Below are positions 3,041-63,095 of a stretch of DNA of 64,000 nt, in pieces. The notes under the pieces are model-generated. The model was not told the origin of the DNA and did no database searches. It saw nothing but the letters and a program-made list of their open reading frames with translations. Numbering within the stretch: position 1 is the stretch's first letter; each line of letters starts with the position of its first letter. The stretch is from the NCBI GenBank assembly GCA_017617355.1, contig JAFZWI010000002.1, positions 19,640-83,639 of the forward strand. The letters run 5' to 3'. Source of the stretch: Salinivirgaceae bacterium (GTDB lineage: Bacteria; Bacteroidota; Bacteroidia; Bacteroidales; SZUA-534). A program made the translations under genes and the position numbers.

Positions 3041-4267
3041 ATGGGCAGACCGAGAATAAACAAAGATGAGAAGGTCGCGCAAAAGGCGCGTTTTGATTTC
3101 ATTCACTCGCGGCGCGGCGATGACAAGCTGGAGCTGCTAATCAATTTCGGCTATTCGACGCGCCGGTATGTGGCGACCAAAATAGAGATTCCCAAGTCGG
3201 CGTGGAACGCCGAAGAACAGTCGGTGGTTAAACAATACCCGAACAGCGACAAGATTAACCTCTATCTGCTGCAACTCAAAAGCAGATACGAGGCCGTGGA
3301 GCTTGACTGTATGACAAGGGGTATTCCCTTCAACCCCGAAGCGCTCAATATGGGGCTGAAAATCGGGAGCGCCGGCGTTGTGGCGTACTGCCGCGAGAAA
3401 ATCGACATCGACGTAAAGCGAGAGCTTTACGCGCCGGGGACGGTAAAGCACTACACGACATTCTGCAACGTGCTGGAGCGATTTGAAAAGCAGATGGGCG
3501 AGCTGCTGACTTTCGACATTCTCAACAAGGATATGCTGATTCAGCTTGACATATTCTACAAGAGCATATACACCAGCTTTGAAACGGTGCGCAAGCAGTT
3601 TACATATCTGCACAAGTTTTGCAAAACGGCCAAAGAGGACGGGCTTTTGACGCACGACCCTTTCGCCGGATTCAAGATTGAAAGAGGCCGCGAAACAAAG
3701 CAGACAATGCGCGACGCGCTGAAAGCCGACGAACTGCGGCGGCTGGAGCAGATAGCCGCCGACGGCTGGCTCGACGATAACACACAGCTTGTTTTAGACC
3801 GCTTCCTGCTGTCGTGCTACACCGGCTTGCGCATATCGGACAACGCCGACTTGCGGCGTACCGACATCACCTACGACGAGGACGGACATCTTGTAATCGA
3901 CCGTATCACGCTGAAAAACAAGATTAGGGTATTGCTGCCGCTGCACTACCTTTTCGACGGCAAGGGCGAGGCCATTGTCAACAAGTATATGGAGCGATAC
4001 AAGCTGAACCAGTACGTGTTTCCGCAGCTGTCCGACCAAAAGACGAACTCAAAGCTGAAGCTGATTGCGGCGGCGGCGCAGATTCGCAACTTGGGGCTGT
4101 CGTTTCACATCGCGCGGCACACTTGCGCAACAATGCTGGCTGAAAAGACCGGCAACCCATATACCATTATGCAGCTGCTCGGTCATTCCGACATCAAAAT
4201 ATCAATGACCTATATACATAACAGCTACGCGACGGTGGTAAACAGCCTCGCCGGTGTCAAGTGGTAG
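3041..4267 (+). CDS. int: tyrosine site-specific recombinase (phage integrase)
   Basis: 408 aa. The C-terminal catalytic pattern is LRISD..., HIARHTCAT (HxxR) and LLGHSDIKISMTYIH (H...Y). The N-terminal SAM-like/arm-binding region is typical of Bacteroidota integrases. Confidence 0.92.
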   Translation: MGRPRINKDEKVAQKARFDFIHSRRGDDKLELLINFGYSTRRYVATKIEIPKSAWNAEEQSVVKQYPNSDKINLYLLQLKSRYEAVELDCMTRGIPFNPEALNMGLKIGSAGVVAYCREKIDIDVKRELYAPGTVKHYTTFCNVLERFEKQMGELLTFDILNKDMLIQLDIFYKSIYTSFETVRKQFTYLHKFCKTAKEDGLLTHDPFAGFKIERGRETKQTMRDALKADELRRLEQIAADGWLDDNTQLVLDRFLLSCYTGLRISDNADLRRTDITYDEDGHLVIDRITLKNKIRVLLPLHYLFDGKGEAIVNKYMERYKLNQYVFPQLSDQKTNSKLKLIAAAAQIRNLGLSFHIARHTCATMLAEKTGNPYTIMQLLGHSDIKISMTYIHNSYATVVNSLAGVKW

Positions 4268-49503: not shown

Positions 49504-51303
49504 ATGATGGAAAACGGACAATTAGGCGGCAACTACGATACTTTTTTCGACGAGAAAGACCCTCAATGGAATTTGACCGCCGATGATATAAAACTTATCG
49601 ACGCGCTGCAACAACAATACAATGAGGCTATCCCCAACAACGATTCGCAACGCAACCGCCGCAACGCGCAGTTAGCCTATTTCTATGTCAAATTTTTGAA
49701 TGGCCAGCCCGACGCGGTAACAAAAGCGTTTTTTTCAAGTATTCGCCGCCACGCCGGAAATGGGGAAAAGATAAAAATGTATATCGTTCCCGAATACGCG
49801 ACTTACGACCGCATTGCAGAGTATTTATATCACAACCCGATAACCAAGAACATTGTCCGCAAATATGTACCCGATTTAAAAGGGTTGCCATCGTCAATCA
49901 AAGCAATGTTTAAATTTTTGATTGAGCTGTATAAGCAGCGCAAAACCGCCGCAGCCGACCCAACCCAGCCAGCCGAAGCCGCCCCCGAAAAAACGACCCT
50001 CGATTTTGCGAAGCATTTGGCCAAGCTCTACGCCGACGGCCAAAAGCTCGATTTTGTGAAAGCAAAATCAATCAGCAAACAAGGCGGCTACAATTTCACC
50101 GACAACGACCTTATGCAAGCCTGCGAGTTGGGCGTGGTGCTGGCGGCGCGTTCCATTGCGCAAGACGGCGACGGCAGAATACAAGACCGTTTCCCCCGAC
50201 TTGTTGACCTTTACGCCCGACAAACAAGGATAACAACGAAAGACCAAATCGGCGAATCGTTGCAGCAATACTCAACACCCTGCCCGATAGCCTATTTGCT
50301 TGATATGTGGGTGCGCCAAACAATGATTGGCCAAACACGGCATTTCTACGAACCAACCGCCGGAAATGGTTTGCTCACAATCGGACTGCCACTCGACGCG
50401 ACCGAGGTTAACGAAATCGACCCACCGCGTTATAAGAACCTTTTGCAGCAGGGCTTTTGCCGAGTAACCAACTACGACGCGGCTGCTGGCAAGATAACCA
50501 CCGCCGACCCGAAGAATTGCCCGATTAGCGGCGTGGTTATGAATCCACCGTTTGCACCGCTTGAAAACCGCAAAGACTGGCTTGTGCGTAAAGGCGAGAT
50601 TGACGGACGCGGCGAATTGTCGTATGAGATAACACGCCTCGACCACAAGATAGCTATCCTCGCGCTTGAAACAATGGTAGCCAAAGGCCGTGCGGCAATC
50701 ATTGTTGGCGGCAAAATGGCCGCGAAATACGCCGAGTATAAAGATGTGTATTGGAAAAACGGCTCGATTTTCGGCGCGTGGCGCACGTTCATCAGCTATC
50801 TGCACCGCCAGTACAACATTGTCGATGTAATCTACATTAACGGCGACCTTTACGCTAAACAAGGCACAACATTCCCGATTGTGGTAATCTTGATTGACGG
50901 ACGCACCCGATGGAACAGTGAGCTTACCCACCAGTGGCACAAATACGATGCGGCAAAGGACGCGCAAATCAGCACTTTCAACGAGTTCTACTTGCGTATG
51001 CTCCAGCACCTTGAAATGGGCGAACCGAAAACCGACCCCGACCGAGAGAAACGGCTGGCAGAGGCAAAGAAAAAAGCCAGTTGGCTTCTGCACTATGTAA
51101 GTTTCAATATGCCGTGCAGATACGACAAGGGCGACAAGTTTTTGTTCAAATCGCCAGCCGTGCCAAAGGGCGAAGTGCTTGAGGTTGAATTTGGTTGGCA
51201 CGGCGAATCGGGCAATGGCGCTATTGTTTACCACTGCAAGACGAAAAAAGGCACATCAACCGCCTCGGAAGAAACATTGGACGCTTGCGAGAAATTGAAT
51301 TGA
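49504..51303 (+). CDS. N6-adenine DNA methyltransferase module with an N-terminal unknown domain and a C-terminal small beta domain
   Basis: The motif order QQYSTP (X), FYEPTAGNG (I), VVMNPPFAP (IV) is gamma-class. First ATG at 49504 (the track ORF starts at a non-ATG codon at 49366). The C-terminus carries REKRLAEAKKKASWLLHY plus an SH3-like tail. Confidence 0.8.
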   Translation: MMENGQLGGNYDTFFDEKDPQWNLTADDIKLIDALQQQYNEAIPNNDSQRNRRNAQLAYFYVKFLNGQPDAVTKAFFSSIRRHAGNGEKIKMYIVPEYATYDRIAEYLYHNPITKNIVRKYVPDLKGLPSSIKAMFKFLIELYKQRKTAAADPTQPAEAAPEKTTLDFAKHLAKLYADGQKLDFVKAKSISKQGGYNFTDNDLMQACELGVVLAARSIAQDGDGRIQDRFPRLVDLYARQTRITTKDQIGESLQQYSTPCPIAYLLDMWVRQTMIGQTRHFYEPTAGNGLLTIGLPLDATEVNEIDPPRYKNLLQQGFCRVTNYDAAAGKITTADPKNCPISGVVMNPPFAPLENRKDWLVRKGEIDGRGELSYEITRLDHKIAILALETMVAKGRAAIIVGGKMAAKYAEYKDVYWKNGSIFGAWRTFISYLHRQYNIVDVIYINGDLYAKQGTTFPIVVILIDGRTRWNSELTHQWHKYDAAKDAQISTFNEFYLRMLQHLEMGEPKTDPDREKRLAEAKKKASWLLHYVSFNMPCRYDKGDKFLFKSPAVPKGEVLEVEFGWHGESGNGAIVYHCKTKKGTSTASEETLDACEKLN

Positions 51304-51325
51304 CAACAATCTAAAAATCAACAAT

Positions 51326-53554
51326 ATGGACTTATTTGAAGAAAACAACAACGATTTAGGAGCTATCATCAACTACTCCAGCTATTTCAAAGAGAAAAAG
51401 CCGTGCTTTTCGTTTGAGAGCAACTACGACAACAAGCACATCAACAACCTTGCGCCCGACAGCAACATTCCCGACAGCTTGATTGAAACAATCAACAAGG
51501 GCATTACGTTGGAGCAACTGAACGAGGTTAGCCACTTGCCGGTGTGCCACTACAAAACGCAGATAACTATCCACGGCATTTGCCCCACGCTGAAATCAAA
51601 CAAGGTTTACGGATATTCGGCGCTGGTTATCAACAACAACAAATCGCTTGGTGTGCGCTGGTTGGCCATCGACCGCAAAAAGAAAAACCGCATTGCCGAT
51701 TACGTTGGCGAATACGGCTGGCGAACATTTGAGGATTCGCAGGTCTATTGCTATTCCAAAGAATTTGAATATGACAAAGACGAGAAACAAGAGGTTTACA
51801 ACAAGTTGGTTAACAAACTGAATAAGATAGACCGTTCACTGTTCTACGGCTACATTGATATTTTGGACTACGACTATTCGCGTAGCAGCTGGGTAATATC
51901 CAACTCAAAAAGCAACTTTGAGGTGGTTATTTATCTGCAAGGCATTTACGAGCAAAACATACAAGCGTTTTTGGAAAGCGTTTGCGACGATAGCTGGGCA
52001 AACATCGAGGCCAAATACGAAGAATTTAAGCAGCGTATGGAGCAACGCCGCGCCGAAGCCGAACAAGAGAAAAAGGAGCGCGAGAAACGCCGCCAAGAGG
52101 CCGACGCTGCCTACAAACAATGGTGCGCCGACAATCCGTTCCCCGAAAAGTTTGTGAAAATGGACTTTAGCGAGTTGCAGGCTGGCGATATTATCGGCTA
52201 CTACCGACAAATGTCCGAGGGTGGCATTAAAATCTACCTTGAACTGTTTTTGAACTGGAAACGGCTTTGCTACCGCAGCTACAATTACGAAAAAGGCGAA
52301 TACACAATCAAAAGCGGCCACGTTCTTGAACGCAAAGATTTGCCCGAAGAATTTTGGGTATGGCGGCGCGAAGCCGCAACGCCGTCGGCAACCGCCACAG
52401 CTTCGGCGCGGCCATCACACGGCGACGCTGTTGAGATTGTGGACTACGGCGACAACGAGGTGGCCGTTTTGGGCTACACCAAGCACAAATATTTGGAGTT
52501 GAAGAATTTGGGCGGTGGCCGCTGGAACAAATACATTAGAATCGACGGACGGCCAATGGCGCAGGGTTGGTGCTTTCCGCGCCACAAACGCGCCGAGCTT
52601 GAAAAAATGTTCGGCATTGAGGCCAACAGCCAACCGGCAGAGCCGCAACCGGCCAAAGAAGAACCGCAGCCCCAACCGGCAACCGATGAGCCGAAATTCA
52701 AAAACGGCGAGCGTGTTTGGTATTATGGCGACGGCGCAGACGGCAGGGCAAACGGCTGGCAAGTATCAATTCTTTTCTACCGTAACGGCAAGTATATGGT
52801 GCATTGGGAATCGCTACGCGGCGGCAAAGCACAATTCTACGCCGATGAGAGCGAATTGAGCCGAGAGCCGCGCAACCAAGACGAACCCGACCGCACAAAC
52901 CGCCTTAAAGCCGCAAAAGCAAAAGCACACGAACTCTATTTGTATGCCCAACACAACATTCCTGCGCCGAAAGAATCGGGCATTGACGGATTGGACGATG
53001 ATTTAATAGAAATGAAAAAGCGCGTTGCCAACTGGCTTTCCGAGGAAACTCTATCGCAAGCGAGAGGAAAATCGAAAGACGAAATATACAAGATATTCGA
53101 CAACACCCCACTACCAATAGCATACATACCCAAACGGTTTGCGGACTTGATTGACAGCGAATTAACCGACTTGTATGTTTATTCGGGAAAGGCTTATTTT
53201 GTTGACCACGCCGTAAACCATCACGGTAACATTTCCTCGGATAAATATTTATTGATTCAAGACATACTAAACGAACCCGATGAGATAAGGAAAACCCTTA
53301 TTGATGGCCGGGATTCATACGTGTTTACCAAAAGATTTACACGATACAATGCTGTTGTAATCACTATTGAGGTTACTGAAAACGGCAAGATGATATTACA
53401 TAAATCATTCTTTGACCAAAAGAAAAGGCCGTATGCGAATAAAGGCATACGGCTTTATAGCTTACCGTCGGGGGGCGGCGACCTTCCACACCTACAAGGG
53501 TGTTCCCCCATCATTCGTGCCAAAAGCACACGGCAGCAGCCTTCCTGCTCTTGA
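51326..53554 (+). CDS. multidomain protein; the C-terminal domain resembles phage PBECR/RelE-barnase-type nucleases
   Basis: 742 aa. The parts in order are an AT-rich N-domain, a charged coiled coil, a small domain (AVEIVDYGDNEVAVLGYTKHKYLELKNLGGGRWN...GWCF), an SH3-like module and the helix motif RLKAAKAKAHELYLYAQH. The C-terminus is YFVDHAVNHHGN...ILNEPDEI...YNAVVITIEV...MILHKSFF. Confidence 0.55.
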   Translation: MDLFEENNNDLGAIINYSSYFKEKKPCFSFESNYDNKHINNLAPDSNIPDSLIETINKGITLEQLNEVSHLPVCHYKTQITIHGICPTLKSNKVYGYSALVINNNKSLGVRWLAIDRKKKNRIADYVGEYGWRTFEDSQVYCYSKEFEYDKDEKQEVYNKLVNKLNKIDRSLFYGYIDILDYDYSRSSWVISNSKSNFEVVIYLQGIYEQNIQAFLESVCDDSWANIEAKYEEFKQRMEQRRAEAEQEKKEREKRRQEADAAYKQWCADNPFPEKFVKMDFSELQAGDIIGYYRQMSEGGIKIYLELFLNWKRLCYRSYNYEKGEYTIKSGHVLERKDLPEEFWVWRREAATPSATATASARPSHGDAVEIVDYGDNEVAVLGYTKHKYLELKNLGGGRWNKYIRIDGRPMAQGWCFPRHKRAELEKMFGIEANSQPAEPQPAKEEPQPQPATDEPKFKNGERVWYYGDGADGRANGWQVSILFYRNGKYMVHWESLRGGKAQFYADESELSREPRNQDEPDRTNRLKAAKAKAHELYLYAQHNIPAPKESGIDGLDDDLIEMKKRVANWLSEETLSQARGKSKDEIYKIFDNTPLPIAYIPKRFADLIDSELTDLYVYSGKAYFVDHAVNHHGNISSDKYLLIQDILNEPDEIRKTLIDGRDSYVFTKRFTRYNAVVITIEVTENGKMILHKSFFDQKKRPYANKGIRLYSLPSGGGDLPHLQGCSPIIRAKSTRQQPSCS

Positions 53555-53610
53555 CGGCATTGCAAACATAGCAAATAATTCAATATGAAATCATTAAATA
53601 TCAATAAAAA

Positions 53611-56600
53611 ATGAAACTAATTGAAATTCAAGAACAATTCTTTAGGTTGAAAAACCGCAACGGCGTGTTTTTCTGCACCGAGGCCGAAACCGACGCTTGC
53701 CTAAACGTTAAGGCGGTTCACTACATTCAAGCCGACAGCAAAATGCGCTTGCCGCAAGACTGGCAAAACGCACGGACAATGACCCTGCGCGGCGACGATT
53801 TGCAAAACATTGTGCCGATGGGCGGCGGTTTGGGTATGGCCTACCAGCCAGCCTCAAAAATCCGCAAACTCGACACACAAACGCCCGACAGTATGGGCAA
53901 CGACATTCACAGCGCCCTTGCCAAGCTGACAAAGGCCGTGGGCGGCGATGTTACCGATTTTGTTTGTGAGCGTCTGCAATGGAGCAGAGAGGAAATTGAG
54001 GAACGATTGTTTGCCGAGCAAGTTGACGCGGTGGCGCTCATCATCTACAACTTTGAGGCGCGAGGCCAAGCTATGATTGTCGGCGACCAAACCGGCATTG
54101 GCAAAGGCCGTGTTGCTTCCAGCATTATACGCTACGCCATTGTTCACAACCTTATTCCAGTCTATTGCACCGAGAACGCCGGACTTTTCAGCGACAACTA
54201 CCGCGACTTGTGCGATATTGGCTGCGCCGACCTAAACCCGTTCATCATCAACAGCAGCACAAGCGGAACAACCAACGCCTGCATAACCACATTGGACGAA
54301 AACGATGAAAACGTTGTTGTTCACCGGCCAATCACTAACAAAAAGGCTAAAGAGGCTATTTTTAGGTCGGGCAAACTGCCAGCCGGTTACGACTACGTGC
54401 TGACAACCTACTCCCAGCTCAAAAACGCCTACAAAAAGACCAAAGACGGCACGGAAGAAGGCAGCGACATCAGCAAATACTACTTTTTGCTCGACCTTGC
54501 GCCTAACGCCGTGTTCATTTTCGACGAGAGCCACAATATTAGCGGCTCGAAAGCTGTGTCGGAAGAATGGTGGAATCCCGACGCGCCTATGACGATGGGC
54601 GGCTCAAACCAGTTCTATTGCTTCAATGAGCTTTGCAAAAAATCGAAATACGCCGTGTTCCTTTCGGCCACATTCGCCAAACGCCCCGAAAACCTTGTGG
54701 TTTACGCCGGACGCACTTGTATTATCGAGGCCGGACTGAAAGATGTAGAGCTGATTCAAGCCATTAGCGACGGCGGCGAGGCTTTGCAGGAAATCATATC
54801 AAGCGATATTGTTGGCGAGGGGCAGATGATTCGCCGCGAGAGTATCTACAAGAATATCAAGGTCAACTACATATATCTTGACAAAACCGGCGAAAAAGAG
54901 TTCGGCACACCCGACTTGGAAAAGCAGCACCGCAGTATGAGCGACTACGTTACCGACATTATCAACGAGATTAACAAGTTTGAGCAAGACTATGTGCAGC
55001 CGATTATCGACAATATGAACAGTAACGATTGGGGCGACCGCACAAGAAAAACCAGCGAAAAAACCGGCGCAAAACACACGCCGTTGTTCTCAAAGCTGTT
55101 TAACATTGTCAACCAGTTGCTTTTCTCAATCAAGGCCGAGGCGGTTGCCGACCACGCCATACGCCGTTTGAACGAGGGCAAAAAGGTTGTTATCGGCCTT
55201 TCATCGACAATGGAAGCGTTTGTAAAAACGCTGCTTGACGAGGACGATGATGATGATAAGGACGGACTGAAAGGATTGTTGGGCATTGACTACGAAAAAG
55301 GCGAGATTTCGTGCGATTTCGCGCTTGTTTTGGATAAGGCGCTCGACAACACACTGAAATACACCACCGACGGCGAGGGCGGCTACCACGTTAAAGACGC
55401 TATTGATGTCAGCGAATTGTCGCCCGACGGCCAAGATGAGTATTTGCGGCTGAAAAACCGCATTGCCGCCGCTTCGTCGGGCATTAGCATTTCGCCCATT
55501 GATATAATCGTGCAGAAGATTGAGGCCGCTGTCAACCCCGAAACCGGCGAACACTGGCGCGTTACCGAGGTAACTGGCCGCAAGCACTATATCCGCTTTA
55601 CTAACAAACAAGGCACACGCGGCGTTATTGAGCCGCGCAAGAAACTGACGCGCAACATTGCTTTCTCTCAATTCCAAAACAATCAAAGCGATGTGCTGAT
55701 TATCAACGCCAGCGGCGCAACCGGCGCGTCGGCTCACGCCACCACCAAAAACACCAATTTGAGGCCGGAGCAAGTGAAACCGCGAGTGATGATTATTGCA
55801 CAAACCGAACTTGATGTGAACAAAGAGGTGCAGAAGCGAGGCCGCATTAACCGCACCGGCCAAATCAAGACTTTGCCGCCGTCGTATGACTACCTTATTT
55901 CGGCAATTCCGGCAGAGAAGCGACTGATGATGATGTTGCAGAAGAAACTCAAATCGCTGGACGCTAACTCCACCTCAAACCAAAAACAATCGACCACGGT
56001 TATTGATGTGCCGGACTTTTTCAACAAATACGGCAACCGTATCGCTTACGACTATTTGATTGAAAACCCCTTAATCAACGCCAAACTGAACGACGCGGCT
56101 AAAGCGCCGGAAAAGGAAGATGGCAAGGCTGATGTTCCGGGCGATTTTCTAAAGAAAGTGTCGGGCTACGTGCCGTTGCTCACCTGCGAGGAACAAGAGG
56201 ACTTTTACAACACCATTCTCGACAACTACTTGAAATACATTGACAACCTAAAGAAAAAAGGCGAATACGACTTGGAAGTGGAAGCAATGGACTTGGACGC
56301 GGAGCTGATTGGTGAGCTGAAGCCGCTTGTTGGCGCTTCGGCTGGCGAGAGCAAATTCGCCGACGCTGCCTATCAAGGCACTTACCGCTGCAAGGTTCTG
56401 CGTAAGCCCTACTCACAAGGCGAGGTTACAGCAATGTTGCGAAACTACTGCGGCAACTCCGACGGCAAGACAATAGCCAAAACGCTGGCCGACGATTTCC
56501 GCAAATACTACACCGATGAGCTTGAAGCCGACCGACTGGCAATGAAAGAGGCCGGACTGAAAGCCATTGAGGACGCACGTAAATCGATAGCCAAAAAAGG

Positions 56601-57717
56601 CGGCAGCGAAGCTGACAAAAACGAGGCCGAGGCTCTTGTAAAGGAAAACTACCGCCAAATGTGGGCTGACGCAGAGGCCAAAATCGAGCGAAAGCGAAGC
56701 AAGGCGCGGTTTATTGAGTTCTTCTATGCAGGACGCGCTTGCATTGTCGATGGCGACACCAACACAAGGGCGATTTGTTTGGGTGCGGAGATTGGCAACA
56801 AGGCCAAAAACAAATACGCTCCATCAAATATTTCAATATCGTTTGCCGTGGCAAGCAGCGTTAAATCGCTGGAGTACAACATTGCCGACAAAGACACACG
56901 CGAGCTGGAAGCCATTATGGGCTTGTCGGCTGGCATTAGCGGCGGCTACTACGACACCACCGACTACGGCCAAAAGTATCTTGAAAACTGGCCGCAATAC
57001 TGCAAAGAGGCAACCAGCGACACCGAGCTTCGGGTAATCATTGTGGGCAACATTCTGCGCGGCTACAAGAGCGCACCCGAACACTCAAAACTCATTTCGT
57101 TCACCACTCACGACGGCAACGTGCTGAAAGGTCTGCTTGTGCCGAAACAAGCCTTTGACGACGATAAAGGCAACAGCACAACAACCAAGCTGCTTATGAC
57201 AAAATACTCCGTGCTGAAATTCAAACCGGTTATGGAGCGAATGTTCGGCAATTACGGTGAGAAGCAAACAGTCAACCTCACACGCGGTATGAAGCTGGAT
57301 ATTGAGGGCGGCTCATTCACTCTGCGCTGTACGGTGCAAGCCACATTCAAAAAGCTGGAAAAACTGCAAGACTGGCTCGACATCAGCCCCGACGGACGCG
57401 GTTTTGTTTCAAAGAGCGACAACTGGCAAATCCGTTTCTACGACCGCGACCGATTCGACGCTGTTTGTGAATTGCTTGAAAAATACCAATTCCAAGTTGA
57501 ATTGCAGCCTATTGAGGCCGAGCGCTATTTCGGAAAGCAGACGCACACGCTCAAACAAGGCAACTGGAAACCGCTGAAAACCGACCCAGCCAACATTCCG
57601 GCCACCGGCGAGAACGGCAGCGCCCAATACAACAACGGCAAACGGACATTGCAGCTTGCCAAAGCAAAGGAAAAGGCGCGACAACTGTTGAAATACGCAC
57701 AGCGATACACACGATAA
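53611..57717 (+). CDS. strawberry-notch-type SF2 helicase (DarB helicase-like)
   Basis: 1368 aa with GDQTGIGKGR (motif I, Sno-type), IFDESHNISG (DExH), INASGATGASAHA and RGRINRTGQ (motif VI). The C-terminus ends with KRTLQLAKAKEKARQLLKYAQRY. Confidence 0.8.
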   Translation: MKLIEIQEQFFRLKNRNGVFFCTEAETDACLNVKAVHYIQADSKMRLPQDWQNARTMTLRGDDLQNIVPMGGGLGMAYQPASKIRKLDTQTPDSMGNDIHSALAKLTKAVGGDVTDFVCERLQWSREEIEERLFAEQVDAVALIIYNFEARGQAMIVGDQTGIGKGRVASSIIRYAIVHNLIPVYCTENAGLFSDNYRDLCDIGCADLNPFIINSSTSGTTNACITTLDENDENVVVHRPITNKKAKEAIFRSGKLPAGYDYVLTTYSQLKNAYKKTKDGTEEGSDISKYYFLLDLAPNAVFIFDESHNISGSKAVSEEWWNPDAPMTMGGSNQFYCFNELCKKSKYAVFLSATFAKRPENLVVYAGRTCIIEAGLKDVELIQAISDGGEALQEIISSDIVGEGQMIRRESIYKNIKVNYIYLDKTGEKEFGTPDLEKQHRSMSDYVTDIINEINKFEQDYVQPIIDNMNSNDWGDRTRKTSEKTGAKHTPLFSKLFNIVNQLLFSIKAEAVADHAIRRLNEGKKVVIGLSSTMEAFVKTLLDEDDDDDKDGLKGLLGIDYEKGEISCDFALVLDKALDNTLKYTTDGEGGYHVKDAIDVSELSPDGQDEYLRLKNRIAAASSGISISPIDIIVQKIEAAVNPETGEHWRVTEVTGRKHYIRFTNKQGTRGVIEPRKKLTRNIAFSQFQNNQSDVLIINASGATGASAHATTKNTNLRPEQVKPRVMIIAQTELDVNKEVQKRGRINRTGQIKTLPPSYDYLISAIPAEKRLMMMLQKKLKSLDANSTSNQKQSTTVIDVPDFFNKYGNRIAYDYLIENPLINAKLNDAAKAPEKEDGKADVPGDFLKKVSGYVPLLTCEEQEDFYNTILDNYLKYIDNLKKKGEYDLEVEAMDLDAELIGELKPLVGASAGESKFADAAYQGTYRCKVLRKPYSQGEVTAMLRNYCGNSDGKTIAKTLADDFRKYYTDELEADRLAMKEAGLKAIEDARKSIAKKGGSEADKNEAEALVKENYRQMWADAEAKIERKRSKARFIEFFYAGRACIVDGDTNTRAICLGAEIGNKAKNKYAPSNISISFAVASSVKSLEYNIADKDTRELEAIMGLSAGISGGYYDTTDYGQKYLENWPQYCKEATSDTELRVIIVGNILRGYKSAPEHSKLISFTTHDGNVLKGLLVPKQAFDDDKGNSTTTKLLMTKYSVLKFKPVMERMFGNYGEKQTVNLTRGMKLDIEGGSFTLRCTVQATFKKLEKLQDWLDISPDGRGFVSKSDNWQIRFYDRDRFDAVCELLEKYQFQVELQPIEAERYFGKQTHTLKQGNWKPLKTDPANIPATGENGSAQYNNGKRTLQLAKAKEKARQLLKYAQRYTR

Positions 57718-57739
57718 TCGAACCTAAATACTTAATACA

Positions 57740-59602
57740 ATGATTACAAAACAAAATCTAAAAAGCGAATTTGAAAACTACAAACAGTTTTTAAAGAACG
57801 ATGAAATGCGCCAAAAGGTGCAGGAAGCTATCGAGATAAGCGAGTTCTACGGCGAGGACACCGACATAACACGCGCCGTTGACGCTATTTGCGAAATGGT
57901 GAACCGCTTTATCGACAAGGCCGACAAGTTTAAGCCCACAACGGCGAAAACACCGGCTGCAAAAAAGACCGAAAAGCGCAAGACGCTGGCCGACTATAAG
58001 TTTGCAAACAAATTTATGTGCGAGAGGCAGAAGCCGGTTGTGCGCGAGGGCTGGAGCGAATTGGAAAGCACCATTGCGCGGCTCGACAAGCAGCTGGCCG
58101 AAATGCCGAAGCTCTACAAACAAGAAAAGTTGGGCAAAAAGGCTATTGTGTACGCTCACTATTTCTTTGGCTCGACCGACATTTTTGTTACCGAGGCCGA
58201 CGATGAGCTGATGTTCGGTTACACAATTTTGAACGGCGACTGTCAAAGCAGCGAGTACGGCAACCAGTCGATTGAGGAAATAACCAACAGCAAGTATTGT
58301 GAGCTTGATTTCTATTGGGATAACAAGACACTGGAGCAAGCCCTATACGACTGCCACCCCGACTATTTCCCCGAACCTAAAACCGATGAACCGACCGAAA
58401 CCGACGAGGCCAAAGCGCGGCGCATACGTATTGCCGAGGCCGAGGCCGAAGCCGCCCTTGCCCTGCTGGAGCTTGTCAACCTTTCGGGCGTTGATGTGGC
58501 CGAAAGACCGCGAACAACCGACCTATTCGGCAATGAGCTGGAGCGCGACCGCTGGCAGAAACGCTGGGACGCACGGCGCAAAAAATACATTTACACCGAC
58601 AACGACGGCGAAGAATGGTACAAGAACGAGCGCGGCCACTATTGCCTGCTTAATGGCAACGATAGCGAGGATATACGCGACCACGCCGTAAACATTTTGC
58701 GCAACGAATTTCCGCAAGCGAAATACCGCGACGAGATTGAAGAATTTGTCGAAACAAGAGATGAGGACGAATTAAATGAGGACGATATAATTGACGATTT
58801 TATCGGCTGGCTTGGCGACGATATTGTTTATTTCCTTTGGGATAGATTTCCCGACTATCAAGACGAAGCCGACGAGTTCATTAACTCCGGCCATTGGGAC
58901 GATAACGTGAGCCGTTACGAAAACTTAAAAGCCTTTAAAAAGTGGCTCGATGACGAAATAGGCGAAACCGTAGGACACGGAAAGTTGTTTGATATTGAGG
59001 AACTGACCGACACCACTGGCCGCGTTACCCCTCTTTATAATATCGACAATAAAAATGATTATTTCAACCGCGAGGACTTGTCGTTTGTTATGAGGGAGCT
59101 GGGAGATTATCTGCCCAAACACAGCAAACACCTTGAGCGCGTTTGGATAGACGAAAACGACACCTACCGATTTGAGTTTGGCGAGGGTGCTTATACGGAA
59201 AACGCACCTGCCGACAAAAAGTGGTATATAAACGCCTTTAGAGCTATACAAGAGCGATTCCCAAGCGTATCGGACAGCTTTATTGAGGAATTTGTAGCCG
59301 ACGGCTGGGATAACACCGCCGAACTCTACGACAATTTGAAAGCCTTTAAAGAGTGGCTTGATGATAAAACCGGCAACACCGACGGCGGCGAGCTGTTTGA
59401 AGTTGGCTGGGAAGATTACGGCGCACAAGAGCGTGGCGTGTTAAGGCCGCTTTACACTATTAACGACCAATGGGGTGAGGACTACTCATTTGCAGAGCAA
59501 TGGCTGCGCGACACACTGGCCGTTGACAACCTTGCAATCGACCGTATGTGGATAAATGAAACCGACGGAACTTACGGATTCTTAACAAAATATGCGAAAT
59601 AA
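57740..59602 (+). CDS. DUF2958-like N-domain protein with a triplicated acidic module
   Basis: AIVYAHYFFGSTDIFVTEADDELMFGYTILNG...EYGNQSIEEI is DUF2958-like. It also has the linker RIRIAEAEAEAALALLEL and three copies of FP...EF[VI]...W[DG]...Y[ED]NLKAFK.WLDD. Confidence 0.6.
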   Translation: MITKQNLKSEFENYKQFLKNDEMRQKVQEAIEISEFYGEDTDITRAVDAICEMVNRFIDKADKFKPTTAKTPAAKKTEKRKTLADYKFANKFMCERQKPVVREGWSELESTIARLDKQLAEMPKLYKQEKLGKKAIVYAHYFFGSTDIFVTEADDELMFGYTILNGDCQSSEYGNQSIEEITNSKYCELDFYWDNKTLEQALYDCHPDYFPEPKTDEPTETDEAKARRIRIAEAEAEAALALLELVNLSGVDVAERPRTTDLFGNELERDRWQKRWDARRKKYIYTDNDGEEWYKNERGHYCLLNGNDSEDIRDHAVNILRNEFPQAKYRDEIEEFVETRDEDELNEDDIIDDFIGWLGDDIVYFLWDRFPDYQDEADEFINSGHWDDNVSRYENLKAFKKWLDDEIGETVGHGKLFDIEELTDTTGRVTPLYNIDNKNDYFNREDLSFVMRELGDYLPKHSKHLERVWIDENDTYRFEFGEGAYTENAPADKKWYINAFRAIQERFPSVSDSFIEEFVADGWDNTAELYDNLKAFKEWLDDKTGNTDGGELFEVGWEDYGAQERGVLRPLYTINDQWGEDYSFAEQWLRDTLAVDNLAIDRMWINETDGTYGFLTKYAK

Positions 59603-59633
59603 CTTATTTACAAACCTTTAAATTAAATTTAAA

Positions 59634-60725
59634 ATGAAACTACAAGGAAAAACATTGGCAGAGGACATCAAGAAAGTGCAACTGCCAGCCGAACTGCAAA
59701 ACTTTTACAACGACCACATTGCAAAGAATGTGGACTTGTACGGCGAAGCGCCGACCGTTACCAAACTGATTGACGCTTGGCTTGAAAAGGCCAACGCCTA
59801 TCTTGAAGCAAACGCCCCGAAAGCCGAGCCGAAGAAAGAAGAACCAAAGGCCGAGCCAAAAAAGGACACCGAACACGTAAAGGTGGTAGCTCCCAAAAAG
59901 CCGCAACCAAAGGCCGAGCCTAAAAAAGAAGAGCCGAAAGCAGAGCCAAAGGCAGAGCCGAAAGCAGAGCCTAAAAAGGCCGGAAAAAAATCGGGTAAGA
60001 AAGTGCCTGCCGCTTTATTCAAGACCGGCGCGTGGGTGATTGACAACAACAGCGAAAAGGCTGGCGTTATCAGCGAGAAACTGCGCTACGACGATGAGCG
60101 CGGCTGCTGGCTCTATCATATCGAATATGTCGGCTCAAAGGAGCAATCGCTTGTAGCCGAGTGCGACCTTGCACGAACACGCGCACCGCGCACCGTAGCC
60201 ACCACTGGCGAACTTGTGCCGGAGCTGTCGGCTGAAATCAAGATTATCAAGCGTTACATCGCATTGGACGGCAAAAAGTTGAGCAAGTTGGGCAACGAGC
60301 CGCGCCTTGCGCTTGCAGCCTTGCAGAAGATGATTATCAACAAGCAGATTCGCAAGACCAGCAAGTATGCCAAGTATATCAACGATATGCAGGACAGCCT
60401 CATTAAGCTTGTCAACAGCCGTGCAAAGGACGCTGAAATAACAATCAACCACATCGACGAACTCCGCAAGATTGTCGCCAAGCAGAACATCAGCGAAATC
60501 TCAAACATATCGCGAGCTTTCGTCGCCCTTATCGGCAAAGACAACAAGCAGAAAGAGGCCAAATCGCTCTACGAAAAGTTGTTAAAGTACAATTTCAAAG
60601 GCGACGATTCAGCCGAGGCCGCAACGATGAAAAAGGCGCTGAAAGCCTACATCGACGGCGAGAACGAAACCGTTTACGCCACAGCGCGTGAGCTGCAAGG
60701 TATTTTCGGCCTTGCCGGTATTTAG
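59634..60725 (+). CDS. K/E/P-rich protein with an SH3-like module
   Basis: 363 aa with PKAEPKKEEPKAEPKK repeats. FKTGAWVIDNNSEKAGVISEKLRYDDERGCWLYHIEYVG; the C-terminus is ARELQGIFGLAGI. Confidence 0.6.
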   Translation: MKLQGKTLAEDIKKVQLPAELQNFYNDHIAKNVDLYGEAPTVTKLIDAWLEKANAYLEANAPKAEPKKEEPKAEPKKDTEHVKVVAPKKPQPKAEPKKEEPKAEPKAEPKAEPKKAGKKSGKKVPAALFKTGAWVIDNNSEKAGVISEKLRYDDERGCWLYHIEYVGSKEQSLVAECDLARTRAPRTVATTGELVPELSAEIKIIKRYIALDGKKLSKLGNEPRLALAALQKMIINKQIRKTSKYAKYINDMQDSLIKLVNSRAKDAEITINHIDELRKIVAKQNISEISNISRAFVALIGKDNKQKEAKSLYEKLLKYNFKGDDSAEAATMKKALKAYIDGENETVYATARELQGIFGLAGI

Positions 60726-60781
60726 TTAATAACCGAGTGCAGGGGGCGTTTCGGCGCTCTCTGCATTTTTTAAAACAACGA

Positions 60782-62173
60782 ATGATGAACAACAAACAAA
60801 CGGCCTTGTTTGGCATTGACGACCGTCCGCAACCGAAATACAAGGTCGGGCAAATGGTTCGCGTATCGTCGTGGGGGCAATACGATTTTGCTTACATAAA
60901 GTCGGTTAAATGGTGGAATTTGTTTGATACCTACAAATACGAACTGACAGCCTTTCACGGCGGCGATTACCACGAAAAGAAAGAATACGACATTAGGCCA
61001 ATTGGTAGTTTTGATTTGAAATACGATGAAGAAAAGGCATATACAATCAACCCGCCCGAATGTGAGGTGGGCGACAAAATTTTCGCAAAGAAAGTTAATC
61101 GGACATACACGGTAAGAGACATTAACCTTTATGGCGTTGACCACAAATACAAGTACAACAAACGCGGACTACGTGTTGTGTCAAAATCAACAGCGTCCTA
61201 CATATACCGTTTGGAAGAAACTGATTCGCCGGTATGGAGTGGTGAATTTAAAGTGCTTCCCAAAGAATCTCCCGACAGCGACAAATCCAAACGCATACGC
61301 ATTGCCGAGGCCGAAGCAGAGGCCGCGCTTGCGCTGCTGGAGTTAGTGAAGATTGGTAATGAGCCGAAGCGCGGTGATGTTTACACGCTGCCCAAAAAGT
61401 TTGAAAAACCCGACGCTTGGTTAAGCGCAAGCGACAAGGATAGATACGATTTTTATTCAGTCGCCGATGTTGTCAGCAACGGCAATATCATTGTTATTGA
61501 TGAGCAAACATATAAAAGCGAATGGTATTCTGCTGACGAATTTAAACGCGCTGGCTTCAAATTTCACCACCACCAACCCGATTACGGAAAGGTTGGCGGC
61601 ATAAGCGGAATCGAAAGAAAAAATGTCGAAATTCACCGCCGGAGCAAACACGGACAAATGGGCGAGATTGACAACTTTGAAGAACGGCACGCGCTGTATC
61701 TTAAACTGCTGAACGACAGCAACTATTATGATGTGATGTTCAAACCCGAAAACGGCGGTTTGAAAGCTGTGCATTATGGGCATAACTTTGACAAAGAAAA
61801 AGGTCATTACGAAAAAGAAGTGATGAGATATGCTTATCAAAATGGTTATTGCGTCATATTAGAAAATGAGCAAGGAAAAAATATCGGCGAGAACTACACG
61901 GAAGGGCTTTGGAATGAAGATGTATTTGAGTTAGCTACTTGCGAAAACGCAAATAGTAACAACAATAACATTGTCAATGGTCTAAAGCATTGCGCGTCAA
62001 AAGACGATACAAAAACAGCAATTTTATATTTCTATAAAGGCGTTTTTATCGAAGCCGATGTTGATAGAGCAATAAGGCGTTATAATGGGCTAAAAAACAC
62101 GCTAACCTATTATAAGGCGTTTACTGCCATTTATATAGTTGATAAGTGGGGTAATATTTATAAGATGAGATAA
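60782..62173 (+). CDS. two SH3-like modules + AEAEA linker + AT-rich C-terminal domain of unknown function (effector candidate)
   Basis: Start at MMNNKQTALFG. It has YKVGQMVRVSSWGQYDFAYIKSV and CEVGDKIFAKKVNRTYTVRDI, then RIRIAEAEAEAALALLEL. The C-terminal region of about 270 aa has no recognised motif. Confidence 0.6.
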   Translation: MMNNKQTALFGIDDRPQPKYKVGQMVRVSSWGQYDFAYIKSVKWWNLFDTYKYELTAFHGGDYHEKKEYDIRPIGSFDLKYDEEKAYTINPPECEVGDKIFAKKVNRTYTVRDINLYGVDHKYKYNKRGLRVVSKSTASYIYRLEETDSPVWSGEFKVLPKESPDSDKSKRIRIAEAEAEAALALLELVKIGNEPKRGDVYTLPKKFEKPDAWLSASDKDRYDFYSVADVVSNGNIIVIDEQTYKSEWYSADEFKRAGFKFHHHQPDYGKVGGISGIERKNVEIHRRSKHGQMGEIDNFEERHALYLKLLNDSNYYDVMFKPENGGLKAVHYGHNFDKEKGHYEKEVMRYAYQNGYCVILENEQGKNIGENYTEGLWNEDVFELATCENANSNNNNIVNGLKHCASKDDTKTAILYFYKGVFIEADVDRAIRRYNGLKNTLTYYKAFTAIYIVDKWGNIYKMR

Positions 62174-62225: not shown

Positions 62226-63095
62226 ATGAAAATAATATTTGAAACCGCAAAACAAAATCGGAAAAAAATGATACTCGACAAATTCAACCCCAAATTCAAC
62301 CCGACACCGGCGCAGAAACGCGCATATCGGGCGGAAATGAACAAATACATTCGCACCGCGCACCCAATTCAGCCAATCAACGGCTTGGACGGTTTTGAGC
62401 CGCGCCACAACGAGCCAGCCGAGCCGCAGCCAGTCAAGCGCAAGTTGCAGAAAAGCGACCAAATGAATAGTATGGACTTTATGCAGGAAAAGTTTGAAAT
62501 CATACCGCTTACTGGCCGGTGGAAGAAGCTAATCGGCTATCCTCAATCGGACAGCAAGATTATGTTTTATGGCAAGCCCGGAAACGGGAAAAGCACGCTG
62601 GCGCTCCAGTTTGCCGGTTACACCTCGCGGACGCTGGGCAGCAAAACGCTCTACGTTACCAGTGAGGAACCGTTCTCGTACACGTTGCAAGAGAAATTAA
62701 AGAGGCTGGGCGTAGCTAACCCTAATTTGACAATTACCGGCGAATTTCCTGCCGATGTCAGCAAATACAAGTATATCTTCATTGATTCGGTTAATAATTG
62801 CGGAATGAAACCCGAAGATGTAAGGAATTTGCCGCCCGACCATTTTTACGTGTATGTTTTTCAAACCACCAAAAGCGGTGCGTTCCGTGGCTCACAAGAG
62901 TATTTGCACGATGTTGACGCGGAAATAAAAGTCGAGGCAATGAGAGCCGTGGCTGGCAAGAATCGTTTTGGCGGCTACGAGGAAATTGAGGTGTTGCCGC
63001 AGCGCAACGAGCCGTCAGCCGCGAAGCCGAAGCCAAAATCGAAACGCGCCAAAGGCCGCGAACTACTGGCGCAGACGCTGGCAGGGTTGAAATAA
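62226..63095 (+). CDS. RecA/KaiC-superfamily ATPase
   Basis: Walker A YGKPGNGKSTLALQFAG and Walker B-like YIFIDSVN. The N-terminal extension is basic and contains PINGLDGFEP. Confidence 0.65.
   Translation: MKIIFETAKQNRKKMILDKFNPKFNPTPAQKRAYRAEMNKYIRTAHPIQPINGLDGFEPRHNEPAEPQPVKRKLQKSDQMNSMDFMQEKFEIIPLTGRWKKLIGYPQSDSKIMFYGKPGNGKSTLALQFAGYTSRTLGSKTLYVTSEEPFSYTLQEKLKRLGVANPNLTITGEFPADVSKYKYIFIDSVNNCGMKPEDVRNLPPDHFYVYVFQTTKSGAFRGSQEYLHDVDAEIKVEAMRAVAGKNRFGGYEEIEVLPQRNEPSAAKPKPKSKRAKGRELLAQTLAGLK

Follow-up and report, generated by a model that had tools for sequence, protein, structure and literature searches.

The DNA analyzed here, which we call the window, is a 64,000-nucleotide (nt) stretch of the genome of a Salinivirgaceae bacterium (GenBank assembly GCA_017617355.1, contig JAFZWI010000002.1, positions 19,640 to 83,639) that holds an integrated Bacteroidales prophage. 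Among the early genes of this prophage, five of six consecutive genes encode a copy of the same short peptide motif. The carriers are an N6-adenine DNA methyltransferase (the methylase), a protein of 742 amino acids (aa) that we call p742, a Strawberry-notch-type helicase, and two further proteins, p620 and p478, while p363, which is encoded between these last two, has no copy. We conclude that the motif acts as an interaction element on a tether, kept by selection at the end of each module, and that it is an ancestral part of the methyltransferase/Strawberry-notch-helicase pair of the Bacteroidota, a DarB-like dyad. A methylase-helicase dyad belongs to the repertoire of polyvalent proteins described by Iyer et al. 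2017 (PMC5512222), of which the P1 virion protein DarB is the archetype. The reading that we favor, with a probability of about 0.4, is that the motif is a docking or oligomerization helix whose copies bind each other.

Anatomy of the five copies

The motif had been noticed in an earlier reading of the DNA without database searches (the sequence-only reading), which described it as a recurrent helix in five consecutive proteins. All five peptides that it named are in frame and within a few bases of where it placed them, although it misplaced three of the ranges by 2-5 nt, which puts two of the three out of frame. Five neighbors do carry the motif, with p363 interrupting the row. The copies sit at module ends, as had been claimed when they were placed at domain boundaries or at the C-terminus, and Pro, Asp, Glu and Thr abound in the stretch just before every copy (PKTDPD in the methylase, NQDEPD in p742, KTDPANIP... 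in the helicase, PKTDEPTETDE in p620 and PKESPDSD in p478). In an ungapped alignment of the five copies, the first motif residue is basic (Arg in 4/5, Lys in p478), one position is always Leu or Ile, two Ala are invariant, and the C-terminal end is hydrophobic. The copies fall into two classes: class A is Lys-rich (methylase, p742 and helicase) and class B is Glu-rich (p620 and p478). The two class B copies are 77% identical at the DNA level over 79 nt and 80% identical over a 60-nt core, which is less than the ~85% first estimated, and their flanks are unrelated, as had been said. The label "DUF2958-like" that had been given to p620 finds no support in Pfam, which gives no DUF2958 match even at E<=5.

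A hidden Markov model (HMM) of the motif scores the five copies at 37-44 bits in a six-frame translation of the window, where no other segment exceeds 5.3 bits and no reversed decoy exceeds 6.9 bits. An exhaustive search of 1.84 billion representative proteins with a strict profile returned nine matches at E<=1e-3, seven of them from this phage lineage and two in spurious repeat proteins. The sequence-only reading had conceded that its proposal would fall if the motif were a generic Ala/Glu/Lys helix occurring at similar frequency in unrelated proteins; neither the window, nor the decoys, nor the 1.84 billion proteins contain such a background. Pfam, PHROGs and PADLOC scans of the carrier proteins found no family matching the motif itself.

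Judged from the window alone, class A and class B are only weakly linked, and not significantly so. In leave-one-out models the omitted copy is always the best match outside the training set, yet it scores 5.6-10.4 bits where decoys score 7-9 bits, and a model built from class B only gives the class A copies 3-5 bits. What probably joins the two classes is the set of orthologous helicase tails in other genomes, which are A-like, B-like or intermediate.

In an AlphaFold2 model of helicase residues 1041-1368 (55 sequences; mean predicted local distance difference test score, pLDDT, 84.7), the protein is globular to about residue 1307, and is followed by a low-confidence linker (residues 1308-1340) and a single confident helix (residues 1342-1367, pLDDT 73-94). 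In the model of p478 (3 sequences) a helix at residues 165-189 falls on the motif, a weak indication with its mean pLDDT of 29. The motif is thereby predicted to be an alpha-helix of about 20 residues behind a flexible linker rich in Pro, Asp, Glu and Thr. Instead of peaking at 100 degrees, where it is low, its hydrophobic moment has its maximum at 150-160 degrees, and on a helical wheel two opposite hydrophobic stripes are parted by two charged stripes, which suggests contacts on two faces. Foldseek found nothing in the PDB at E<0.07 with the helicase C-terminal model, and PDB sequence searches with p478 and with a fused methylase-helicase protein (P0124; P and L numbers are our handles for proteins and loci) found nothing.

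Distribution, copy number and selection

A tail with a period-2 pattern of Ala, Leu or Met and Glu or Lys ends most of the 120 best homologues of the helicase. Some of these tails are of the Lys type (RKLRLAKAKAKALLLYAYAQKNK, KRAKALMLKMKMAKAKL, LKLKARALKLKLELLKFAA) and some of the Glu type (LLELEAEALALELELLAA, ELELEAMALELELELLNFAA), and tails intermediate between class A and class B are found at the orthologous helicase position. Where the methylase and the helicase are fused into one protein (~1555 aa), a second copy lies at the junction between them, near residue 330, and in P0011, where a helicase is joined to a counterpart of the N-terminal module of p742, the order is helicase, helix, p742-like module, helix. 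We scanned one genome per species with the pattern LELEA.AL.LELEL and found at least 120 stretches, almost all of them in Bacteroidota. Among the matches listed, 114 are in frame, 103 come 1-5 residues ahead of the stop codon in proteins that are 1200-1870 aa long, and 9 are at the junction. In the split elements examined (L006, L064, L073, L086, L108, L127, L026 and L130), the open reading frame (ORF) directly upstream of the helicase always ends in the same tail as the helicase. Given this pair rule in split elements and the junction copy in fused proteins, there are at least two copies in every element examined, and the two matching copies are kept through gene fusion and gene fission.

The motif is not restricted to elements that form virions. 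The Glu-type pattern has more than 120 matches in genomes, compared with 2 in 2.9 million viral contigs. We noted it in compact integrative islands of about 9 kb in Cyclobacteriaceae and their relatives (L007, 10001-18613; L134 and L135, 9030-18505). In these islands the fused methylase-helicase is of the Glu type and is accompanied by a RadA-like ATPase (~520-540 aa), a GTA_holin_3TM protein, and either an integrase or a serine recombinase, while neither capsid nor type IV secretion genes lie within 10 kb. PADLOC found no match for any component, the compact islands included, and this is therefore not a catalogued defense system. Megablast of the motif region against GenBank phages gave no match, IMG/VR held no relative when the helicase alone was the query and had 0 matches to the back-translated pattern RIRIAEAEAEA, and a metagenome scan with the helicase alignment found nothing. 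The last three residues of many homologue tails (P0055-P0127, loci L009-L127) are -LAA, -FAA or -KAA and so resemble the C-terminal end of the ssrA degradation tag. In those homologue lineages the ending may add a turnover signal; the window copies are without it.

In the phage lineage of the window the motif has further carriers. A public contig of the same prophage, which runs past the window end (L001), encodes two extra class B carriers, a 780-aa protein that ends in the motif and a 730-aa protein (P0007) that carries it mid-protein. The copy in the 780-aa protein has one extra Glu-Ala unit (AEAEAEAEAALALLEL, L001 ~3900-3990), so the underlying hexanucleotide repeat can change length by slippage. 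A motif HMM scan of related phages, which the sequence-only reading had recommended, found instances outside the training set at 13-31 bits. In one related phage (L003/L004, helicase 72-74% identical) there are eight such carriers: the methylase, the p742 homologue, the helicase, the p620 homologue, a protein with LPD3 and ART-PolyVal domains, two proteins without assigned function, and a MuF_C-containing protein whose post-motif domain resembles the C-terminus of P0007 when the two sequences are compared directly by eye. Class A is alike in the window phage and in L003, while class B reads RIRIAEAEAEAALALLELV in the window phage and RRLKLLKLKAKAIKMKLEL in L003; a third relative (P0005) has RIRIAKAKAKAAMAMLEL at the orthologous class B position. 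We also considered the motif as a general punctuation of polyvalent proteins and rejected this, as just 4/102 ART-PolyVal homologues carry it, all four from this phage lineage.

Within one element, the copies differ at the DNA level far more than at the peptide level. The copies of p620 and p478 have 19/20 residues in common with 8 silent codon differences, those of p620 and P0007 have 20/20 with 6 silent differences, and the methylase and helicase tails of L006 have 24/25 with 11 silent differences. Paralogous copies in one genome have a DNA identity of 80-90%, with silent changes in about 5-11 of 20-25 codons and 0-1 replacements. Since silent changes are many and replacements nearly absent, selection acts on the protein, and the pattern within elements is one of purifying selection on the peptide and not of recent gene conversion. 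Together with the specificity of the HMM, this bears out the proposal that the motif is a shared functional signal and not generic low complexity. Copies are alike within one element and unlike between elements, including complete Glu/Lys swaps, and junction and C-terminal copies agree in charge flavor in 64 acidic and 7 basic pairs, a count that ignores kinship. The tail can be far more conserved than the protein body: the body of P0139 is only 33% identical to the ART-PolyVal protein of L003, yet P0139 has exactly the tail of P0136, which is a relative with 98% identity to the same L003 protein.

The motif also coincides with places where close relatives of the prophage change in sequence. 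Two of them (L128 and L129) are 92-99.7% identical to the window as far as the p478 leader, MNNKQTALFGI, after which their N-terminal cassettes are unrelated; in all, three alternative N-terminal cassettes (P0130, P0131 and P0132) occur with one and the same leader and motif. In L128, identity to the window is 99.7% as far as nt 60822 and is lost after it, apart from an isolated 77-nt island of 96% identity (window 61292-61368) that consists of the motif and KIGNEPK and beyond which the sequence is unrelated again. In L129, identity resumes at window 61268, 18 nt before the motif. Thus, the motif forms a constant joint in a cassette slot. Likewise constant are the initial 11-13 residues of p478 (leader, window 60785-60822), which make up the left joint of the slot, with the motif as its right joint.

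Docking and its alternatives

The five segments are copies of one small module, a linker rich in Pro, Asp, Glu and Thr with a helix of about 20 residues behind it. A first copy stands after the methylase and a second closes the helicase, whether the two are fused or separate genes, and in this prophage lineage p742, p620, p478, and the 780-aa and 730-aa proteins have acquired the module as well. If the motif is a docking helix, the helices of one element would bind each other in a small helical bundle, which would either dock separately coded modules into one complex or clasp a fused protein. Between variable cassettes, the helix is the one sequence that stays constant, and new combinations for that reason arise or survive with their joints at the helix. 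We favor docking because it accounts for a matching pair that survives both fusion and fission, for copies that are identical inside one element, for the spread to other modules, and for the mosaic joints. It is also the best fit among the three functions that the sequence-only reading had offered, which were an oligomerization helix, a capsid-targeting signal and a protease-processing site.

Several observations weigh against docking. Contact between the helices is something that we infer and do not observe directly. Fused proteins need no tether yet keep both helices, so docking of methylase to helicase cannot be the whole function. The copies in one element are like-charged, all Glu-rich or all Lys-rich, which makes a simple homotypic bundle electrostatically unfavorable, and a helix with two hydrophobic stripes, as judged from the hydrophobic moment, would not make a classical single-seam coiled coil. 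The counts of charge co-variation ignore phylogeny, and a common third partner would explain the identity within elements equally well. Two variants of docking were tried and rejected: charge-complementary pairing of Glu-type with Lys-type copies, because L003 has Lys-type copies only and the fused proteins have two of the Glu type, and a rule of one tag per polypeptide, because fused proteins have two.

A more ambitious version of docking, which we consider rather unlikely, is that the helices form a family of orthogonal docking codes by which mobile elements of the Bacteroidota split, re-assort and re-assemble polyvalent anti-defense proteins. Class A would then gather p742 (the PBECR-like nuclease protein) together with methylase and helicase in a single antirestriction machine, and class B would link a second group of effectors to a MuF-type head protein, so that they are delivered along with the DNA. 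Each element would have its own co-evolving code, which would also keep the modules of competing elements from mixing.

The main rival to docking is a shared address tag, in which the helix would be read by one common receptor and not by other copies, with each separate module needing a copy of its own. The receptor might be a virion assembly or ejection component in phages, or the downstream RadA/KaiC-like ATPase, which is conserved beside the pair everywhere examined. Phage P1 packages DarB into its head and needs other Dar proteins to do so (PMC5512222; PMC12810830); in L003, the MuF_C-containing head protein carries a class B copy, followed by the domain that resembles the C-terminus of P0007. 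Copies that are alike within an element and different between elements would also fit co-evolution with a single receptor. Against this, fused proteins have two copies where one would do, and the motif occurs in integrase-bearing islands without nearby capsid or type IV secretion genes, while its Glu-type pattern hardly occurs in viral contigs. For these reasons the ancestral function cannot have been capsid targeting, and the earlier proposal of capsid targeting as a general function is weakened by the same two observations. We regard an address tag as possible but somewhat improbable. Quite unlikely, in our view, is that the DNA and not the peptide is what is kept, as a homology patch for cassette exchange with the peptide as a tolerated linker. 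The sequence-only reading had suggested that the motif may also serve as a recombination handle, and it is right that cassette joints coincide with the motif: the 77-nt island of L128, the resumption of identity just upstream of the motif in L129, and the leader and motif common to three cassettes all agree with such a handle. As the primary selected property it fails, however, because paralogues keep the peptide while sharing just 80-90% of their DNA. The extreme C-terminal copies have no downstream cassette to exchange, and joints in linkers are expected anyway, as only such chimeras fold.

The remaining readings have very little in their favor. A proteolytic processing signal would mark the cuts that release active modules; processing as such has been proposed for polyvalent proteins (PMC5512222), and in the fused proteins a copy of the motif does come after each module. 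Such a signal is a poor fit to a motif that lies 1-6 residues before the stop in more than 100 proteins, where cutting releases nothing, and wholesale Glu/Lys swaps between elements are ill-suited to one protease specificity. No peptidase gene is conserved beside the motif, and we think processing highly improbable. A T4-type prohead protease site (L-x-E) was rejected, as the Lys-type tails are without Glu. A sliding-clamp-binding motif was also among the ideas set aside. We give hardly any more credence to a passive spacer, a stiff Ala/Glu/Lys helix grown by hexanucleotide slippage that has no specific partner. The simple composition, the extra Glu-Ala unit in the 780-aa protein, and the weak link between the classes by sequence alone are in line with such a spacer, but no like segment is found elsewhere in the window or in the decoys, purifying selection is strong, the tail is more conserved than the protein body, and C-terminal tails space nothing. 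Finally, the many Glu-type and Lys-type tails ending in LAA, FAA or KAA could mimic ssrA and limit the lifetime of the enzymes as a C-terminal degradation tag. In the window, the helicase ends in ...AQRYTR and the other four of the five copies are internal, so that an ssrA-like free C-terminus is confined to distant homologues, many of which have it; nor can the copies at the junctions of fused proteins be C-terminal degrons. For the motif as a whole, this explanation can be given next to no weight.

The gene block and comparable systems

Coordinates of the motif copies, their genes and the surrounding features are collected in Table 1. Besides the structural genes listed there, the window encodes collagen-like and endosialidase-chaperone proteins, so that the module is phage-encoded, in keeping with polyvalent systems, which are encoded by phages or conjugative elements. 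Endolysin genes adjoin the module in L001 and L130. A protein of a Salinivirgaceae metagenome-assembled genome is 100% identical to p620.

Table 1. Motif copies, genes and other features, in window coordinates unless a locus is named
Feature	Position	Strand	Description
Host purA	210-1493
Integrase	3041-4267
Tail-fiber and other structural genes	up to ~34 kb	minus
Early-gene block	~35 kb to window end	plus	holds the motif region
N6-adenine DNA methyltransferase	49507..51303	+	NPPF read directly in the sequence; matches P0128 (598 aa)
Class A copy, methylase: REKRLAEAKKKASWLLHY	51043..51096	+	aa 560-577; linker GEPKTDPD before, ~65-aa C-terminal domain after
p742 gene	51326..53554	+	SH3-like segment in N-terminal module, then motif, then PBECR3-like domain
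Class A copy, p742: RTNRLKAAKAKAHELYLYAQH	52892..52954	+	aa 523-543; between N-terminal region and PBECR3 nuclease-like domain
Strawberry-notch-type SF2 helicase (1368 aa)	53611..57717	+	Pfam AAA_34 and Helicase_C_4
Class A copy, helicase: KRTLQLAKAKEKARQLLKYAQRY	57640..57708	+	aa 1344-1366; C-terminal tail, then TR and stop
p620 gene	57740..59602	+	60-aa head, PHROG 5203 region, motif, duplicated C-terminal region
Class B copy, p620: ARRIRIAEAEAEAALALLELV	58415..58477	+	aa 226-246; linker PKTDEPTETDEAK before
p363 gene	59634..60725	+	same module, without motif; 60-aa head and KAEPK repeat linker
p478 gene (P0130, 462 aa)	60785..62173	+	leader MNNKQTALFGI, variable N-terminal cassette, motif, C-terminal domain
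Class B copy, p478: SKRIRIAEAEAEAALALLELV	61286..61348	+	aa 184-204; linker PKESPDSDK before; right joint of cassette slot
RadA/KaiC-like ATPase gene	62226..63095	+	homologue downstream of the methylase-helicase pair in every related element examined
780-aa and 730-aa (P0007) class B carriers	L001 1664-6195	opposite	between endolysin-like genes, just beyond the window end

The hallmark polyvalent domains found in the window are AAA_34, Helicase_C_4, PBECR3, a KaiC-type ATPase, and a GNAT acetyltransferase, the last also encoded in the early-gene block according to Pfam; the PBECR3 match (p742 residues 603-700) scores 27.3 bits, below the Pfam gathering cut-off of 30 bits. The related phage L003 adds ART-PolyVal, LPD3 and MuF_C to this set. 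In the window these domains are spread over separate ORFs and not combined in one polypeptide, and relatives exist in which the split genes are fused (P0011, 2036 aa; P0124, 1555 aa). The window region is therefore a disaggregated, gene-split version of a polyvalent-protein module.

The motif is not the only recurrent part of the gene block. A second recurrent module is an N-terminal head of ~60 aa that is homologous between p620 and p363 (BLASTP E=6e-7; window 57740-57940 and 59634-59840), and in P0006 the same head is joined via a Pro/Lys linker to a p363-like region and a RadA/KaiC ATPase. Low-complexity DNA is present in p363 (window 59834-59980), where 12-nt repeats encode a tandem KAEPK/KEEPK linker. 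The C-terminal region of p620 is internally duplicated (YENLKAFKKWLDDE..., window 58916-58970 and 59327-59381, 80% DNA identity). Small beta-rich segments that look like SH3 or Tudor domains, judged by eye and from low-confidence AlphaFold2 strands, adjoin the motif in the methylase C-terminus, in p742, in p363 and twice in p478 (window ~51120-51300, 52690-52860, 59990-60160, 60840-61010 and 61060-61270).

The known polyvalent proteins (PMC5512222) share with this block the NPPF adenine methylase and SF2 Strawberry-notch helicase, PBECR, the SMS/RadA-like ATPase and GNAT, and differ in that the module here is split into separate genes. By analogy with P1, the products might be packaged as DarB is and might protect injected DNA from restriction. 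A further parallel, in layout and behavior and not in sequence similarity, is the specificity subunit HsdS of Type I systems. HsdS has the layout S1-D1~S2-D2, its dimerization helices D1 and D2 (the central and distal conserved regions) zip together in antiparallel fashion, crossovers map to the DNA that encodes the helices, and half-proteins of one domain and one helix work when made separately (PMC3874165). The order of domain, helix, domain and C-terminal helix is common to both systems, as are two helices that resemble each other, shuffling of variable domains with joints at the helix DNA, and a place in adenine-methylase/translocase machinery; by analogy with the zipped HsdS helices, those described here may pair. 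The HsdS helices are ~40-50 residues long and follow DNA-recognition domains, whereas those here are ~20 residues long, stand behind long disordered linkers, follow enzymatic modules, and have two hydrophobic stripes and a uniform charge.

Short helical end tags are also known from the docking peptides of modular polyketide and non-ribosomal peptide synthases and from designed E/K coiled-coil pairs, and the synthase tags re-associate modules that are covalently joined in other systems. Like these, the motif is a short helical tag with sequence classes that could give partner specificity. Unlike these, which pair a C-terminal with an N-terminal tag or opposite charges, the copies here are all C-terminal to their own module and like-charged within an element. 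Cargo-loading peptides (the T4 CTS, the P1 Dar hierarchy, encapsulin) are similar in that a short peptide is common to the unrelated cargo of one particle, and the P1 archetype of the dyad is itself packaged (PMC5512222; PMC12810830); the motif here differs in that it is also found in capsid-free islands and inside fused proteins, at their junctions. Short helical peptides for docking or tagging are a known kind of element. A word search of the full text of the polyvalent-protein paper (PMC5512222) found none of the terms in which a recurrent inter-module helix would be expected to be described, and a literature search on polyvalent proteins and amphipathic helices found no paper. The association with the dyad and its split modules, the pair rule, and the co-variation within elements appear not to have been described previously.

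The motif defines a conserved trio of methylase, helicase and RadA-like ATPase, with the tail on the first two, that occurs widely among compact integrative islands. Should the helices prove to be docking tags, it would be clear how giant polyvalent proteins come apart into genes and are reshuffled with their joint function intact. The early effectors that co-operate in Bacteroidota phages and islands, most of them unannotated proteins, could then be found by the tag as a simple marker in their sequence, and the tags would constitute a natural set of short, mutually specific association peptides.

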